The notes under the pieces: generated by a model
Database searches by the model: none
What the model was told of the DNA's origin: nothing
Seen by the model: the letters and a program-made list of their open reading frames with translations, nothing else
Assembly: GCA_010093995.1 (NCBI GenBank)
Contig: ML992502.1
Span: 2,302,728-2,366,727, forward strand
Direction: 5' to 3'
From: Elsinoe ampelina
Lineage: Eukaryota
DNA: 64,000 nt
Shown: positions 5,099 through 64,000 of the stretch, in pieces
How the letters are laid out: every line of letters starts with the position of its first letter
Position numbering within the stretch: the stretch's first letter is position 1
Position numbers and translations under genes: made by a program

Positions 5099-5957
5099 GT
5101 TGGCACGAACCGAAGGAGGAAGAGGTCGATGCGACAAGGAAGGGTGAATTGGAGGTTGACGCGATGCGCTTTCGATAATGATGACGCGCGCAAAGCCGTT
5201 TAGACTTGGGATGCGAATTTCCAAGACCCAATCGCGATCGGATGAAACGTGGATGAAGACGACGAATGCGACCACGGACAACACAAGAACAGCTGTAAAG
5301 ATGACAATGACCAGCGCTGCAAAGAAGTGAAAAGAAGTCAAGCTGTCTAAAGGCATGGCCGAAAGCTTTGACCTTCGCGCCCTCGGAGGCTCAAGCCTCA
5401 CTAGCTAGTGCGGAGATGGCTGGGATCAAAAGAGCCGCATCAATGACCCCGGGTCGACGGCAATGCTCGGGAACAGGTCTTTAGACGATGATAGACGATG
5501 GTAGACAAATCCGTGAAGAGCATGCTAGCAGATTGCATCCAGCTGTATCAAAAGCCACACGTTCCTGAGTCAAAATCTCATGTCCCATGTCCATCGGGCA
5601 GCTACGACCGCCGACGTGGAATCTTACCTCGCAATAAAGATAGGCATGCAACATTGCATATTTGCATACACTAGGTAGCCGGCCCACCAATTTCTATAGC
5701 TCAATCACAATTGTAGACGTGGCAATGGCACATGAATTGGATTGTCCCTGAGCGGTGAAGGAGGGGCAAATACGGACCCCACTTTGACTGTTTGTTCTCG
5801 ACTCGGACCACATCTTGACCTTTGACCTTCTCCCTGCTCACGTTCGCATTCCATCTTGACTCTTGCATCAAAGTAATTGCCATACGAATCGCAGCATCAG
5901 TCCTTGCATTGCCTTTATATCTCGAAACGACAACGATAGGAGAACAACAACAACGAC

Positions 5958-8900
5958 ATGGCTAGCCACGCGGACGATGATCTTGCCGCGGAGCAGACAG
6001 AGGGCTTCAAGGTGGGCGAGAAGAAGACGATTGACGAATATCAAAAGCTCGGTGAGTTGTCCTCCTTGTTCTTACTGCGTTAAAGTCATTCTCTACGACA
6101 AGATGGCTCCTTCCTCTCGTTGAGTTCATCACAATCCCGCCGACTATATGGGACAATCCGTCTTCAATATATGGACACTGGCCACACCAAACATCCTTTA
6201 TCTAGCCTATCGCTATTATTCCTATTGAATATCTCCCATGCGACAACGATTCCGCTCACTCCAATCCATATCAAGATGGACCCCGTCGACCCAGCCCAGG
6301 CAAATATCTCGTACACTGAATTCCGCAACAATCTGCGTATGCGACTTCGCCCCGACGAATCTATCCCCGCACATCTAGGTCTTCCTGTCGAGCTACATCG
6401 AAGGTACTGTCTGCAGTACATCGAAGAGGGTCAAGCAGCTCATGGTGAAGCTGCAAACGAAACGAAGTGGTACCGCGAATAGGGGAACGGCAACCGCCTC
6501 ATAAATCAGCGCCAGCCATGGATCCGAACCGCCAACATGACCAGGCAGCAAGTTTCAGACCGTATATTCGAAGACTGTCTACGACAAGCAAGATGTTCCA
6601 AAGCTAGACGTCTCCTTGAACGGACAGGGTCAATTTTCGATCCGGATAAGCGACACTGCGATGACCCAGACTTGACGAGGTGGGTCCGCGCTCTTCCTTC
6701 GGACTTTCGAGATGCCAATCTACAACTCTCTTCCGACCATCAGCTTAGACCAATAGCCGGCGATCAACGTGGATCGATCTCGGCTGCTCTGAAGTCAGAC
6801 TTTGGCGTCCTTGGATGCGCCTTACGTCGCTCTTCGATTCTGCGCAAGGACAGCGCTATAGATCCTTTTCAATTCCAGAGCCGGGAATTGCCCCCAACTC
6901 AATCTGGTGCTGTGCCTCAATACTTCGCGGATCAGCTGGGCGAACCCCGTTCATCCCCGCCGCGACGATCCCTGTTCCGACCACCATCGCCTTCGACTTC
7001 AATACGCTCTACACAAAGGCCACCGGAGTACCCCGCTCAAAGTGAAGATGTAACGTCGACTGGTCCCAGGAACAGTGAACAACCATTGGTTCTTGACGAA
7101 TAGGATCTCTCAAGGACTTACGCAGCTGGACGTCCCAGAAGAAATTTCATCTTCAGTCGCAGGAGAGCGCCGCAGATAGACCACGCAGACTTGGACAGAG
7201 CTGTGTCAAGGATTGGTGAGCAGCATCGATCCGGTATCGTACATTCAAATGGCGACTACGCCCTTCCGGACGATCGGCGACCGCAGAACATTAATCCCAA
7301 CCAGCGACGCTCTTGGTGGAGACGACGCACACCAGAGGAAAGACAGTTGCGAAGAGCTGCCGCCGATCTTTTTGAGGACGTGCAGAACCGTAGAAGTACT
7401 TTGCGACCTGTTCGTCCCCCAAACCCACCCAACACGAGCTCTCTATTGGAGACAGAGCAGCCCTTGGCCCCACCAAACAGTGAAGATGCGTCTACCACAG
7501 CTACGGCAAATTTCGGGAACCCCGTGAGTGGCAGCGTTTAGTAGCAACAACAACAGGCACATCCTCGTAGTGACTGGTCTCGACCGGGGCCGGATCGTAT
7601 TGTGCAGCTCGCACGTACGATACCATTGCGAGCCATGCCTGCAGAATCAGTCCAATCTACAACTACAGAATCAGACCAAACCACGTCTGCAGGACCAGTA
7701 AATTCTACGCCTGTAGGGCCAGTGCCGCCCACGCCTGCAGCACCAGTACAGCCTGCAGCACCATCGCGGCCTGCTCCCACGGTATCAACGCAATCCTTCC
7801 CTACAGTATCCGCTAATCCAAGCCGCGGACAAAATCAGGACGCTGTTGCAGATCAACGAGACCCAAGCACAGAGTCAGATCATCACGCTACGCAGAATGG
7901 CCGCCCTTCAGGTTCAGAATGGCAAACAGAAACGACGCAAGACCAGACTGAATCGAGTGGTATTCCCAGCAGGCAAACAAGACAAAGTCTCGCAGCGAGA
8001 CTGAACGGTCAGATTCCAATACGATTCTTTGGTCGAGATGGGGGTACCCAGAACCCCTCCAGATACCGCGTCATTGGATATCACAACGTACGTGATAGGT
8101 ATCGTAATGCCTTCGATGATCATTCTTCTTCCCTCGAAGGCCGGACTCGTCGGGTGTCTACTCGCACCGTCCCATTGGCCACGCCCATCGGACCAGAACA
8201 AACTGGTCTACATGTCCACAACTGGGTCGAAGAGAATGACAATCCGGAGTTGGAAGCACAGAGACGTGCAGCTCGTCACTGGTGGATCTCTACTATGTGG
8301 CGTAATACGGTGAACGACTTCGAAGCTGCCTTTCATCGTCTCGGCGGTTACATGCATCGTCATCGTCATACTCATGATGGACCATTTGGAATAGGATACT
8401 GAAAAACTCGGCGCGTTAGATTGACCATTGGACTCGGTAGAAATCATCGTTCTTTACACGACCCGGAATCGGACACCTCTGACTCCGTGCTACTACTCGA
8501 CTTGGACACTCATTTCAGCATCACATTGATTCGGGCCATTATTTGCATTGTACTGATAAGTATCTTTAGACCAAAATGATGAGTCTCTCCGCAAATGGAA
8601 GGAGTCGCTCGGCATCGGTTCAGGTAAAACGATCGGTGACCCATCCGACCCTCGCAAGTGCATCATCCTCTCTCTAGGTCTCGAAGTCGAAGGCCGCCCC
8701 GACATCATCATCGACCTGACCACTCCCGGGGCCCTCGAGAAATTGAAGAAGCAGCCATTCACGATCAAGGAGGGTGCCACCTTTCGCATGAAGGCCAGAT
8801 TCACGGTACAGCACCAGATTCTCAGCGGAATGAAGTACATTCAGGTCGTCAAGCGAGGGCCTCTCACCAACAAGATGCAGGAAATGATTGTGCGTTTCGT

Positions 8901-9118
8901 GTCCAAGAGCGTCCTAGCAGGAAGCTGATCGTTCACAGGGCTCCTACTCCCCAAGCACAACCGACAAGCCAGAGTACGAGAAGAAATTCGAGCCAGAAAC
9001 TGCTCCTTCCGGCATGGTCGGTCGCGGATCGTACAAGGCTGTTTCTCGTTTCGTGGATGATGATCAGCAGGAGCATCTGAAGTTTGAGTGGTCATTCGAA
9101 ATCAAGAAGGACTGGTGA
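5958..9118 (+). CDS. RDI1: Rho GDP-dissociation inhibitor; exons 5958-6051, 8570-8889, 8939-9118
   Basis: MASHADDDLAAEQTEGFKVGEKKTIDEYQKL joins DQNDESLRKWKESLG across a 2518-nt intron (GTGAGT...CTGAT...TAG). It continues FTIKEGA, MQEMI/GSYSP, APSGMVGRGSY, FVDDDQQEHLKFEWSFEIKKDW*. Confidence 0.95.
6276..8402 (+). pseudogene. Nested 709-codon reading frame in RDI1 intron 1 with four in-frame TAG stops (pseudogene, or editing/readthrough-dependent gene); unknown protein
   Basis: Track ORFs 6120-6482, 6537-7103, 7191-7541 and 7602-8402 share one frame. I translated the gaps between them: the only interruptions are TAG at 6480, 7101, 7539 and 7542. There is an ATG at 6276 (AAGATGG context) and a terminal TGA at 8400-8402. 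Confidence 0.75.
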
Positions 9119-9611
9119 GCATGACTTGTCACGTACCGGAACGAGGTAGCGAGGCAGTCATGAAGGTAGCATCCGCCATCCGAGGCACTGACTTGAAGGG
9201 GTGGTGTTCATCATTGCATTATCATGACTCTCTTTATAGATGGCAGGAATGCATACCCTTATACCACGTCTCGTGGCTGTGCTGCTCCATTCTGTGTCGT
9301 CGTGTCCCCTCTGTCCCGCCAGGATGGATTACAGTGATGGTCTTATCATAAAATATATGCAAGAAGAGAAGTTGACTTATACCCTGAGTCCTCCTCCTTC
9401 ACTGCCCTCATTACTTGTCCTACATCCTTCAGCCCAGGACCCCGCCCTCCCCGACAACCCTGCATTCAAGTCTTTCATAGTTCCGTCTCTTCGCAAGCAG
9501 AATGATCTCCCTCCTCTTCTCTCCACCAAGACACCCCCTGCCTCTGACCCCCCCTTCCCTCCTTCCCCCTCCCTCTTCCCATCCTCAACCTCCCACCCAC
9601 CGGCGCATGTC

Positions 9612-10283
9612 TCACACCCACCCTCCCCTCCCCTCCCACGACGACGAACCAGCGTCATAAAGCCGCAGTCTCCCGACCCCTGCACGCCGAGACAGTCCCT
9701 CACACGGAGCGGTGTACGGACCCTCGCTCTCATCCGTCCATCCATCCGCACCGGCCCAGGGCTCCGGTCGAGTGTAATAGTAGGAGATGGCCGACCCAGC
9801 GGAATCGGTCTTGCGGTGGCATTCCCCTGCTCTCCTTGTCGACTGCGACTGCGACTGCCAGCTGGATCCTGCGTCGGACCCGCTCGGCTCTGGAGAGGGC
9901 GGAGAGCTCCCCGTTGACTCGCTCAGTGATGGAGGCGCGGAGGTAGGGGGGGAGGGGTCGTGGCTGGGTCTCGCTTCTTGGTCGATCCGGTCTTGAGAGC
10001 GGGGGGGTGCAGGGGAGATGAGTTGCGGGTGGACGCGGCGGATGGAGATTGTGCGGGCTGTGTGGAGTTCTGTTGTTGTAATGGAGTCGAGGGGGAGGGA
10101 GTCATGGCTTGCGAGTATTGCAAGGTCATGCTTGGCGGAAAGGTGGGTGGGTTGGGGAGGGTGGTGCGGTGGTTGTGGGATTGATGGGAGGGGGGAGGCA
10201 TCGGTCTTCTTGCCTGATGGGCGGTGGCGGGTGGAGGTCGAGTGGATGAGTTTGGTGGAGAGGCGGCGGATGAGGCCTGGCAT
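9612..10283 (-). CDS. Hypothetical low-complexity Ser/Pro-rich protein (223 aa)
   Basis: ATG-initiated ORF MPGLIRRLSTKL... with no recognisable domain. It lies in a compositionally skewed island where ORFs arise easily. Confidence 0.4.
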   Translation of the reverse strand: MPGLIRRLSTKLIHSTSTRHRPSGKKTDASPLPSIPQPPHHPPQPTHLSAKHDLAILASHDSLPLDSITTTELHTARTISIRRVHPQLISPAPPRSQDRIDQEARPSHDPSPPTSAPPSLSESTGSSPPSPEPSGSDAGSSWQSQSQSTRRAGECHRKTDSAGSAISYYYTRPEPWAGADGWTDESEGPYTAPCEGLSRRAGVGRLRLYDAGSSSWEGRGGWV

Positions 10284-11588
10284 GCCTTTGTGCGTGGTGG
10301 GATGGTTGATGGGCGTCGGGGAGGTGATGGTGGTGTTGATGTAGTAGAGTGGTGACGGGGAAGTGGTGGCTGGTTCAGGGGGATGGTGGTTGGGTTGAGC
10401 AGGTTAAAGGTATTTGAGACTGAGTGACTTGCTGCAAGTCGTATCTTCCGGGAGCGTAGTAACTATCGTGCACTGCTCCGAGGCTTTCTCCGATTTGCAC
10501 CTCTAAGATTGTTCTTGAGCGCGTTTGTAGTCTTTGTCGGGATGCACCATGCAGTCAAGCGCATGTACCGTCCGGGCTGTCAAACGTGAAATGAAATGTC
10601 GAATGACAACAGACGAGGAAGAATGAGACCCATGTAATTCACCTATGCCTCCTACAATCTCACGCGTTCCCAATATAGCAAATCATCCATCGCGAATGAT
10701 CAACCCTGCGAGCTGGAGCCGCAGCGCCCACGCTTACCGTCATCTTCGACCAGGGACGAACACGAAGCTACGGACACGGATACACGGTTCGGACGTGGAC
10801 TGGGAGATGTGAGTGGTGGTCAGAGCAGGGCTGGGTCTGTCAGGGTGTGATGTCGCGCCCTTGGCTTGGGTAGGATTGCGTGGTACGGTGAGATTGAGGA
10901 ATACGAGGGGACATTTGACAAGGGGGCTGTGAGGGAATTGAGAGGCTGTGGCGGTGCTGATGCCGCGAGGACGGCGTTGTCAATTCTCATGTACTGAAAT
11001 TGTAGAGACTCGCGTGAGGTCAGCAGATGTCAAATCTTTCAAGTACAACTCTTCGATGTGCTTTTGTCGCCATGTCGTTTGATTGCATCTGTAATGGTCC
11101 TTGAAAATGAAATGCCTGTTTGCAGCAAAGCTTCAATCACGAGGACCATGGCAACAAGCTCTTGAGCGGACCCACAAGCAGACACGTGGCTCTTCAAGGT
11201 TGCTGGGTCCGGAATATTCTCTGGGTGGTCATGCTATTGTTGGTAGACATCGAGATCTTCATGCTCTTCTACATGGTGGTACACCTGTCGGGTGCCTGTC
11301 CCGAGAATTGGTAAGCAAAAATGGGTATACTCAGTGTGCGCATACATTCAACATTTGCAATGACGCGAGGACGGCGAAAGAGCATGGCTGTATCCCCTTG
11401 CCATGTATCGCGAGAGACGATAGGCGATTATCAAATGCTCATATCATGTCAAGACTCCATGCATTCATCCATCTATGTGAAATTGTCCTCCTCCATGTCA
11501 TGCTCTTGACGTGCTCATATCGCTATTCGCCTTTCACACAGCATATTTCCACATCCCCCGTCTCAAGTCTTATGTCCTCATGGTCACT

Positions 11589-61808: not shown

Positions 61809-64000
61809 ATGAGGACTCAGCATTCTCTGCTGGCCGCTACGGCGTTCAGTGGAGTCGCCCTCGCCGCACCAGCCAAGCTCGAGAAGAAGGACTTTCTCGG
61901 AGTGGCAAAGACTCTGCTCGGTAACCAGGGTGGCGTGGCTGCGACTGCAGTCTCCAACATCCTTGGAGCTGCTTCCACAGCCGTCAGTCAGCAAGGTGGT
62001 GCTGTTAGCACCGCAGCCAGTCAAGCTCAACAGCCATGGGTCACTCTGTAAGTCATCCCTCACACATCTCGCTATTAAAGTTCCTCAGACTAACGACATT
62101 AGTCCTGGCGGTCTGGGTAACGTGGTCAACACTGTCATTGGCAACGGGGGCTCTGTTCCTTCCGCTGCTCTGCCCTCGACGGGTCTTCCGTCAGTGAGCG
62201 TACCAGCAGTCTCCATTCCCTCCGTCAGTGTCCCGAGCGTCAGCGTGCCCAGCGTCCAGCTCCCTACTGTTTCTCCCCCGAGCATCAGCATCCCGAGCTT
62301 CAGCGTCAGCGCTCCGTCCGTCCAGCTGCCGACCATCTCGCCACCAAGCCTGAGCGTCCCATCGGCCAGCATCCCCCAGATCAGCGTCCCGAGCGTCAGC
62401 GTTCCCTCGGCCAGCGCTCCCGCCGTCAGCGTACCTGTTGTCAGCACTCCATCTGCAGGTGCTCCCCTTCTCGGGCTTCCAGTACTCAGCGTGCCTGCTC
62501 TTTCGCTCCCGACCATCTCGATCAACTTGAACATCCCGAGTCGTGCACCCGAGGTCAGCGTTCCTGTTATCTCGGTTCCCAGCGTTTCGGTTCCCAGCGT
62601 CTCGGTCCCTAGCGTCTCGGCCCCTAGCGTCTCAGTGCCATCGGTCTCTCTGAGTGTTCCAACCGATACCCCGGCGATCAGTCTTCCCACCGTCAGCGCC
62701 CCTTCGGTCACCCTTCCAAGTGCGAGCGTTCCTTCGGTCGCTCTTCCTACCGGTGGCAATGGCGGAAGCACCCCTGGCAACGGCGGCAACGATGGCGGCG
62801 ACAACGGAGGTCTCCTCGGTGGACTCTTGAAGATCCCTTCGCTCATCTCCAGCCTCATCCTGCCCACCTCCTCTCTTGCCGGCAACCTCCCAGCCGCTAC
62901 AGGTCTTAACGGAATCGTCCCAGGCGTGGCCAACGGCGTTTCCTCCGTCCTCGGTGGGCTCACTGGCGCCGATCTGCCTACCGGTGGCGCTCCCTCTGCC
63001 ACTGGCCTCAATGGCGTTCTCCCTGGCGTTGCTAGCGGTGTCTCTTCCATTCTCGGCGGCTTCACCGGTGTCGAGATCCCGACCGGCAGCATTCCTGCCG
63101 CCCCTGGCGTTCCGACAGCAGGTAACCCTGCCGGTGGACTCGGCGGCATTGTCTCTGGCGTGGTGGGTGAGGTTTCTACCATTCTTGATGGTTGGACTGG
63201 CATCGGACTACCAACAGGCGCTGGTCTGCCCAGCCTCAGCCTTCCCACCGCTTCCGGTCTCCCGACCGCTGGTCTGCCCTCTGCTGGCAGCCCTGCTGGC
63301 GGACTCGGTGAGATTGTCAATGGCGTCGGTGGCAAGGTCTCTAGCATCCTAGGTGGCCTGTCTGGCGTCGAGCTGCCTACTGGCGCTGGTCTACCTACTC
63401 TTAGCGTCCCCACCGCTTCCGGTCTTCCCACCGCAGGTCTGCCCTCTGCTGGCAGCCCTCTCGGTGGACTCGGCGGGATCGTCTCTGGCGTTGCCGGCCA
63501 GGTCTCTAGCATCCTTGGTGGCGTGTCTGGAGTCGAGCTTCCCACTGGTGCTGGTCTCCCTACCCTCAGCCTCCCAACCGCTTCCGGTCTCCCCACTGCT
63601 GGTCTCCCCACTGCTGGTCTCCCCACTGCTGGTCTCCCCACTGCTGGTCTCCCCACTGCATCTGTTCCCTCTGCGGGCAACCCACTTGCTGGACTCGGCG
63701 GGATCGTCTCTGGCGTTGCCGGCCAGGTGTCTAGCATTCTTGGTGGCGTGTCTGGAGTCGAACTCCCCACTGGTGCTGGTCTCCCTGCCCTTAGCCTCCC
63801 AACCGCTTCCGGTCTCCCCACTGCTGGTCCCCCCACTGCATCTGTTCCCTCTGCGGGCAATCCACTTGCTGGGCTCGGTGGGATCGTCTCTGGCGTTGCC
63901 GGCCAAGTGTCTAGCATCCTTGGTGGCGTGTCTGGAGTCGAACTTCCCACTGGTGCTGGTCTCCCTACCCTGAGCCTCCCAACCGCTTCCGGTCTCCCCA
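61809..64000 (+). CDS. Secreted, highly repetitive Ser/Pro/Val then Gly/Leu/Pro/Thr-rich protein; intron 62048-62102; runs off the right edge
   Basis: Signal peptide MRTQHSLLAATAFSGVALA, then APAKLEKK. After the intron (GTAAGT...CTAAC...TAG) the frame is open to the window end, with PSVSV pentapeptides and larger repeats. Confidence 0.88.
63121..64000 (+). repeat. Coding tandem repeat with units of 165, 165, 225 and 180 nt and a nested 15-nt GGTCTCCCCACTGCT repeat
   Basis: The GG(A/G)CTCGG(C/T)G anchor occurs at 63136, 63301, 63466, 63691 and 63871. Confidence 0.92.

Follow-up and report, generated by a model that had tools for sequence, protein, structure and literature searches.

In Fusarium graminearum, 'pseudogenes' such as PUK1 undergo premature stop codon (PSC) correction by adenosine-to-inosine (A-to-I) editing of their mRNA. 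These genes retain an intact and selected open reading frame (ORF) in which TAG is the only internal stop, and they are transcribed and left unedited outside the sexual stage (PMC11156358, PMC10776026). The stated editing preference is U at -1 and purines at +1 and +3 of the A, and PUK1 carries a tandem TAGTAG (PMC11156358). The 71 genes of this kind hold two sites each at most, and the TAG stops corrected by editing often arise from non-TGG codons (PMC10776026). We analysed a 64,000-nucleotide (64-kb) stretch of the Elsinoe ampelina genome (GCA_010093995.1, contig ML992502.1, positions 2,302,728 to 2,366,727 of the forward strand; the window hereafter, with position 1 at its first letter), in which a frame of 709 codons shares with these PSC genes the intact selected ORF, the TAG-only stops including a tandem TAGTAG, the U at -1 and purines at +1 and +3 of all four sites, and transcription without editing in the RNA sampled. 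It differs from them in its Dothideomycete host, in its four sites against a maximum of two, and in lying inside the intron of another gene. Moreover, editing in Elsinoe is no more than a candidate, and at least one of the sites is unlikely to have been an ancestral Trp.

Two further comparisons are useful. The PSC site of FgBUD14 lies in an alternatively spliced intron, so that a TAG stop and an intron likewise interplay at one locus (PMC11156358); however, that intron belongs to the edited gene itself, whereas the intron that holds the Elsinoe ORF is part of another gene, a housekeeping one, and the RNA contigs showed no alternative joint. With unitary pseudogenes the ORF has in common its in-frame stops, low RNA level and broken annotation, but it lacks frameshifts, contains one stop type and shows strong constraint on the flanking codons.

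This frame represents a real gene, confined to a few fungal lineages. The reading favoured here, to which we assign a probability of roughly 0.4, is that its UAG codons are conditionally recoded by a process of the A-to-I type. On this reading the gene still serves a purpose. Translation of the RNA sampled would end at codon 69, and recoding of all four UAGs would be required for the full 708-aa protein. Fungal ADAT-type A-to-I editing, by which UAG would become UIG and be read as Trp, is the best candidate mechanism, and it would act in a developmental stage outside the sampled RNA.

A selected frame with four TAG codons

The frame runs on the forward strand from ATG 6276 to TGA 8400-8402, and its internal stops are four TAG codons (6480, 7101, 7539 and 7542), with no frameshift. 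This agrees with a sequence-only reading made beforehand, and re-reading the letters returned the same codon contexts (GAA-TAG-GGG, GAA-TAG-GAT and GTT-TAG-TAG-CAA) and the same purine at +3 of all four A's. RNA evidence was taken from the contigs of four public runs, X3-X6 (three studies, stages unspecified), on 5600-10400; such contigs drop minority variants and give neither strand nor true ends. The elements of the frame are as follows.

6276..8402, forward strand: nested ORF of 709 codons, recognised by frame, stops, relatives and selection
6480..6482, forward strand: TAG-1, codon 69, within the 8-mer CGAATAGG (6476-6483); His in E. australis; genomic A in X3 and X4 contigs
7101..7103, forward strand: TAG-2, codon 276, within the 8-mer CGAATAGG (7097-7104); A in X3 and X4 contigs and at the end of an X5 contig
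7539..7544, forward strand: tandem TAG-TAG, codons 422-423, followed by CAA CAA CAA CAG; A's in X3 and X4 contigs

In 2000 shuffles of the same letters the frame contained 27.8 +/- 5.0 stops (minimum 14) instead of 4, and the other five frames of 6052-8569 contain 21-34 each. When TAG alone was read as sense, 12 frames of at least 350 codons opened in the window, and the ORF at 6276-8402 was the sole one with four TAGs; the other 11 had 1-3 each, the two longest of them being ordinary ORFs extended past their own stop. The frame is already open from 6084. An additional in-frame ATG is present at 6171, 35 codons 5' of the conserved start and within an RNA contig beginning at 6129.

All four A's are flanked by U at -1, G at +1 and a purine at +3, of which only the last is informative. 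The 8-mer CGAATAGG is identical around TAG-1 and TAG-2, and TGGT.C occurs a few bases upstream of each. Five extra shared letters around these two sites have a chance of ~1e-3 per pair; the 8-mer may be a recognition motif or a mutational hotspot.

In the ORF, a conserved N-terminal domain (approximately residues 1-190) is separated from a conserved C-terminal block by a long disordered middle part. Among 1.84 billion representative proteins, four matched at E <= 0.001, namely the ORF's own 188-aa piece, E. australis C1H76_5879 and two fungal proteins, P0005 and P0006 (one of 262 aa, the other of 499 aa and uninterrupted). C1H76_5879 (P0004; 190 aa) shows 50% identity over residues 6-188, and 27 columns of the shared N-terminal domain are invariant. 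The E. australis relative stops after 190 residues (...RRSSL), where the window frame goes on as RRSSILRKDSAID. In the E. australis group (P0004, P0007, P0008), one database ORF does not begin until the conserved Met89.

For the C-terminal block, the protein searches found relatives in E. ampelina and E. batatas and nowhere else. Pfam gave no family for the ORF, its C-terminal piece, P0004 or P0006, and one sub-threshold match for P0005 (PARM, E 0.055). The 188-aa piece had no usable match in the structure atlas, its model having a predicted local distance difference test (pLDDT) score of 0.42, and AlphaFold2 on alignment A2 predicted, likewise at low confidence, one long helix with the remainder disordered (mean pLDDT 50.3). 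A metagenome scan with the same alignment matched 241 pattern stretches, none of them a relative. The protein appears to be basic and mostly disordered, apart from a single conserved helical motif near the N-terminus and the conserved block at the C-terminal end. Imperfect 24-nt (8-codon) direct repeats occur at 7637-7768, in four copies of 71-100% identity, in the disordered Pro/Thr/Ser-rich middle of the ORF.

Selection was assessed against E. batatas, whose nucleotides were inferred by single-step parsimony from its out-of-frame public model (7249-7512). The comparison covered 75 codons, all downstream of TAG-1 and TAG-2, leaving out the last four, indel-affected codons and a 13-codon gap. 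Changes fell on the third, second and first positions of the main frame 17, 4 and 1 times (binomial p 0.007 for 17 versus 4), giving 15 synonymous and 7 nonsynonymous changes in main-frame codons and a third-position difference between the species of ~23%. The part after all four TAGs aligned with E. batatas over 231 ungapped columns without any indel. Its 29 differences were clustered (permutation p 5e-5), with only 5 in the last 131 residues. Nor does the N-terminal domain show acceleration: at columns that are otherwise conserved, E. ampelina has 4 unique changes and E. australis has 6. Between the two comparisons, back-translation of E. batatas at 7513-7530 is ambiguous (2 indels or at least 4 substitutions), with a main-frame reading of GTPSS or GTP*S.

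These comparisons of inferred and aligned sequence show a signature of purifying selection on the frame over the time that separates E. ampelina from E. batatas, both in the part after TAG-1 and TAG-2 and in the part after all four stops. The third-position excess and the indel-free C-terminal part argue together that translation of the main frame went on for most, if not all, of that time. The sequence-only reading had called the frame protein-coding and proposed a check for selection downstream of the stops; both the relatives and this signature bear it out.

Nesting of the frame in an intron of RhoGDI

Intron-nested genes are common in animals and rare in compact fungal genomes. A splice from 6051 to 8570 was found in all four RNA runs, at depths of 1789, 22, 56 and 45, and each run carries both GT..AG joints of the gene concerned, so the runs are indeed RNA. 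As the joint 6051>8570 flanks 6276-8402, the whole 709-codon frame lies inside the 2518-nt GT..AG intron 1 of RhoGDI (Rho GDP-dissociation inhibitor), on the same strand, and the dominant RhoGDI mRNA splices it out. The host gene is composed as follows.

5958..6051, forward strand: coding part of RhoGDI exon 1, 31 codons + 1 base, defined by the RNA joint and absent from both public models
6052..8569, forward strand: RhoGDI intron 1, 2518 nt, phase 1, GTGAGT...TTTAG, RNA joint in 4/4 runs
8570..8889, forward strand: RhoGDI exon 2, matching PF02115
8890..8938, forward strand: RhoGDI intron 2, 49 nt, GT..AG, RNA joint in 4/4 runs
8939..9118, forward strand: coding part of RhoGDI exon 3, ending in TGA, from the spliced coding sequence

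Joining 5958-6051, 8570-8889 and 8939-9118 yields an open RhoGDI of 197 aa. The PF02115 match, scored on the RhoGDI part of the public model P0009, reached E 4.7e-56 and 189.9 bits against a cut-off of 26.5. Neither terminal inverted nor direct repeats, the signs of a transposon, were found at the ends of intron 1. Rfam gave 3 matches on 5600-9600, all far under their gathering scores, and no tRNA gene was found in the window. Like intron-nested genes in general, the frame is a complete ORF on the host strand, within a spliceosomal intron and removed in the host mRNA; in contrast to them, its own promoter and terminator are only putative, the contig starts at 6129 and 6135 being a weak hint.

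RNA over the frame itself was present at low depth, and its principal contig is the following.

6129..8598, strand not given: unspliced, unedited RNA contig of X3, depth 18.4 against 1585-1789 on the exons, 0 differences from the genome

Contigs of X4 over 6282-6533, 7023-7204 and 7474-7853 also showed 0 differences; the X4, X5 and X6 pieces over the frame are shorter, with depths of 3-5. The sole difference in any RNA was T>C at 8159 in X6, which falls on a third position and is synonymous. Contigs begin at 6129 in X3 and at 6135 in X4, from two studies, a weak hint of a transcript start near 6129-6135. The stretch 6052-6128 is uncovered in all runs, which is a hole in the contig cover and not evidence.

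Since every RNA piece over a TAG reads the genomic letters, the TAGs are real and the prevailing RNA is unedited. The sequence-only reading had allowed for the TAGs being assembly errors. That sequencing or assembly made the stops is a negligible prospect: no support for it was found, and RNA contigs of three studies, including those of X3 and X4 that span the TAGs, reproduce them with 0 differences.

Public annotation of the locus is broken in both species. The relevant pieces are listed below.

6537..7103, forward strand: 188-aa piece from Met88 to TAG-2 (P0003), present in protein databases as a protein of the window
7249..7523, forward strand: out-of-frame stretch forming the N-terminus of the 489-aa and 480-aa public models, with a 47-nt model intron (7524-7570) directly after it that takes out the tandem TAGs

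The only near-length database match to the frame was a 480-aa E. batatas model with a RhoGDI domain, whose 90% cluster includes the 489-aa E. ampelina model; beyond the window's own proteins, these protein searches found only that chimeric E. batatas model. The window encodes the first 92 residues and the RhoGDI tail of the 489-aa model exactly. Both RhoGDI models, P0009 (E. ampelina, 489 aa) and P0002 (E. batatas, 480 aa), lack the true exon 1 (5958-6051); pieces of the intron ORF, some in frame and others out of frame, are joined in them to RhoGDI exon 2 by way of a model donor at 8266. No RNA contig contains a joint supporting either this donor or the 47-nt model intron. The public N-terminus from the out-of-frame ATG at 7249 was rejected as a genuine product, as 21 of its 75 residues differ between the species and the changes sit on third positions of the main frame.

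E. batatas has no intact long protein annotated and its model dodges the frame as that of E. ampelina does, which suggests that its frame may also be interrupted; the E. batatas model may, however, have been copied by homology, and retention of the TAGs there is suggested by the gene model alone. The gene had been called unannotated beforehand. This holds only in part, since public models cover pieces of it, wrongly; the nesting in the RhoGDI intron had been missed and is new here, and the misannotation affects two Elsinoe species.

Some observations concern RNA and composition outside the frame. Low-depth contigs of X4 and X6, with less than 95% likeness, join RhoGDI exon regions (5987-6037 and 8746-8777) with 190 other letters between them; they encode a different N-terminal sequence and look like RhoGDI mRNA from a second organism present in those samples. 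Downstream of RhoGDI, an X3 contig of depth ~1705 covers the G-rich / C-rich low-complexity stretch 9642-10400, which points to a neighbour with high expression or else to an extended 3' region (ORFs at 9240-9917 on the forward and 9612-10283 on the reverse strand). The most extreme composition in the window is that of 62001-64000, with a GC content of 0.63 and an AT skew of -0.30.

Possible editing, gene death and other accounts of the stops

A young unitary pseudogene is almost as probable an explanation of the locus as recoding, both being short of even odds. The gene would have been lost recently in E. ampelina, perhaps in parallel in E. batatas, through four nonsense transitions, C>T or G>A, that turned CAG or TGG codons into TAG, and the weak RNA would be unspliced RhoGDI precursor or leaky transcription. 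For comparison, a neutral model was built on the ORF itself, with indel:substitution ratios of 0.03-0.10 assumed. Under this model, the probability that 4/4 nonsense changes are TAG is 0.016-0.021 and that of an adjacent pair ~0.02, while all-TAG together with an adjacent pair has a probability of 2-4e-4. Four chance nonsense hits imply 94-105 substitutions, with 9-13 missense changes expected in the last 131 codons; 5 or fewer, as found, has a probability of 0.01-0.10. The absence of any frameshift in 2.1 kb has a probability of 0.0005-0.15 for ratios from 0.10 down to 0.03. Neutral decay fits poorly, because the all-TAG pattern with its adjacent pair is improbable and frameshifts are lacking. 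Loss is further disfavoured by the unaccelerated N-terminal domain, by the 8-mer common to TAG-1 and TAG-2, and by E. batatas, which likewise has no intact annotated protein despite selection between the species. The mixed stops, frameshifts and relaxed constraint of pseudogenes were not found, though a very young pseudogene would be compatible with that.

Other observations lean towards gene death. The RNA contigs are unedited and in X3 amount to ~1% of exon depth. Simple CAG>TAG transitions would suit both the His that E. australis has at TAG-1 and the Gln run behind the tandem pair, and neutral decay of 4% would by itself add roughly as many second-position changes as the 4 found in 75 codons. 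The GC content at third codon positions (GC3) of the ORF is the lowest in the window. Finally, the locus was picked for its pattern from a very large scan, in which a rare chance pattern is possible.

Repeat-induced point mutation (RIP), which the sequence-only reading had named, along with decay, as its alternative, was also considered. A light RIP-type episode after a transient duplication, with C>T/G>A changes at CpA/TpG only, would account for stops without indels and for the CAG/TGG>TAG changes. It is in line with the (CpA+TpG)/(ApC+GpT) index, which is 1.10 for the ORF where sixteen 4-kb windows gave 1.14-1.44, with a moderate enrichment of NTA over NTG codons and with the 3 of 22 inferred differences that are CpA in E. 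batatas and TpA in E. ampelina. RIP is indicated by TpA/ApT above ~0.89 and (CpA+TpG)/(ApC+GpT) below ~1.03, together with a repeated copy. The ORF has a TpA/ApT of 0.625 (window range 0.39-0.72), its dinucleotide odds fall inside the spread shown by 10 other ORFs, and no TAA occurs in frame despite 24 CAA codons, the last point having been made correctly beforehand. The 23 single-step differences in the C-terminal part show no excess in the direction CpA>TpA: 1 is TpA in E. ampelina and CpA in E. batatas, 1 is TpA in E. ampelina and TpG in E. batatas, and 3 run in the reverse direction. No second copy of the region was found in the window or among annotated proteins. An origin of the stops by RIP is accordingly very unlikely.

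It is also unlikely, although less so, that the TAGs are bypassed by other means, whether by readthrough with near-cognate Gln, Tyr or Lys, by small introns, or by translation of separate pieces (Met88-275; a C-terminal product from Met452). Reading the tandem site as Gln would give a Q6 run, but tandem stops square the cost of readthrough, and there are four stops rather than a single leaky one. A 47-nt GTGAGT..TAG stretch does span the tandem TAGs. Candidate mini-introns over the TAGs (42, 37 and 47 nt) were nevertheless rejected, as X3 and X4 contigs run unspliced through all three places; in addition, the 42-nt one covers residues conserved in E. australis, and removing the 47-nt one leads immediately to a TGA. 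Separate pieces are in keeping with Met88, which is conserved in 3 of 4 family members and at which the database ORFs P0003 and P0007 start; however, 7104-7538 has no in-frame Met and yet shows main-frame selection.

Returning to A-to-I recoding, several points weigh against it. Editing is reported in Sordariomycetes and Pyronema (PMC11156358), and reviews state that it is not known which classes beyond Sordariomycetes and Pezizomycetes edit their mRNA, with pseudothecia-forming fungi untested (PMC11156358, PMC7306014). Aspergillus nidulans and Botrytis cinerea gave no sign of editing (PMC11156358). For Dothideomycetes, the literature searched contains no report of A-to-I mRNA editing (PMC11156358, PMC7306014, PMC11087585), a taxonomic point that equally speaks for gene death. 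A host of such editing would be expected to have short Tad2/Tad3 isoforms and an Ame1 that binds Tad3; the Ame1-Tad3 interaction is said to have arisen within Sordariomycetes (PMC11087585). Four sites in one ORF exceed the maximum of two in F. graminearum (PMC10776026). A>G changes at 6481, 7102, 7540 and 7543, which had been proposed as the sign to look for, were not seen: all covering RNA contigs read A, in runs of unspecified stage and in contigs that hide minority variants. A purine at +3 of 4/4 sites is only a ~1-in-16 event by chance. No preference of the TAG sites for hairpin loops was found above the background of 71 other UA sites and fold shuffles. Their unpaired probability of 0.93-1.00 is reached by 49-66% of the 71 control sites, their local fold z-scores are -0.02, -1.18 and +1.05, and the only reasonably stable local hairpin, with TAG-2 in its loop, is equalled by 22 of 200 shuffles. 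A GC3 of 0.46, the lowest among 11 long ORFs, is likewise unfavourable, and the selection tests are compatible with constraint lost in the last few per cent of the divergence.

The ancestry of the sites is a further difficulty. The TAGs had been read as Trp beforehand, but an ancestral Trp is doubtful in view of the His of E. australis aligned with TAG-1 and of the Gln codons that the tandem pair abuts; Gln (CAG) ancestors are at least as likely as Trp. Because of the His and the Gln run, editing would create Trp rather than restore the ancestral residue. The proposal of an editing-restored gene thus stands as regards its UAG-only stops and its intact, selected frame, and is weakened by the missing A>G changes and the doubtful Trp ancestry. 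Taken together, the stop pattern and the continuing constraint favour a gene that tolerates its TAGs, whereas the gene's very recent death is favoured by the RNA, which is unedited, and by the taxonomic prior.

Consequences for the locus and for fungal editing

Whichever reading holds, the public RhoGDI models of two Elsinoe species are wrong. The adenosines 6481, 7102, 7540 and 7543 provide four exact test points for editing in a Dothideomycete. Since the host, Elsinoe, belongs to this class and not to the Sordariomycetes, the earlier expectation that editing here would extend the known range is justified (PMC11156358, PMC7306014). If the sites prove unedited, the locus would be an unusually clean example of very recent gene death. 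More specifically, and only tentatively, it can be proposed that stage-specific A-to-I editing of UAG to UGG in a Dothideomycete switches on a four-stop intron gene, which would imply a third independent origin of such editing, or one much older than is now assumed. If edited, an intron-nested gene in need of four corrections would be the most extreme case of restorative editing so far, and the known range, and possibly the origin, of the fungal editing system would change. One locus would then yield RhoGDI by splicing and a second protein by editing.

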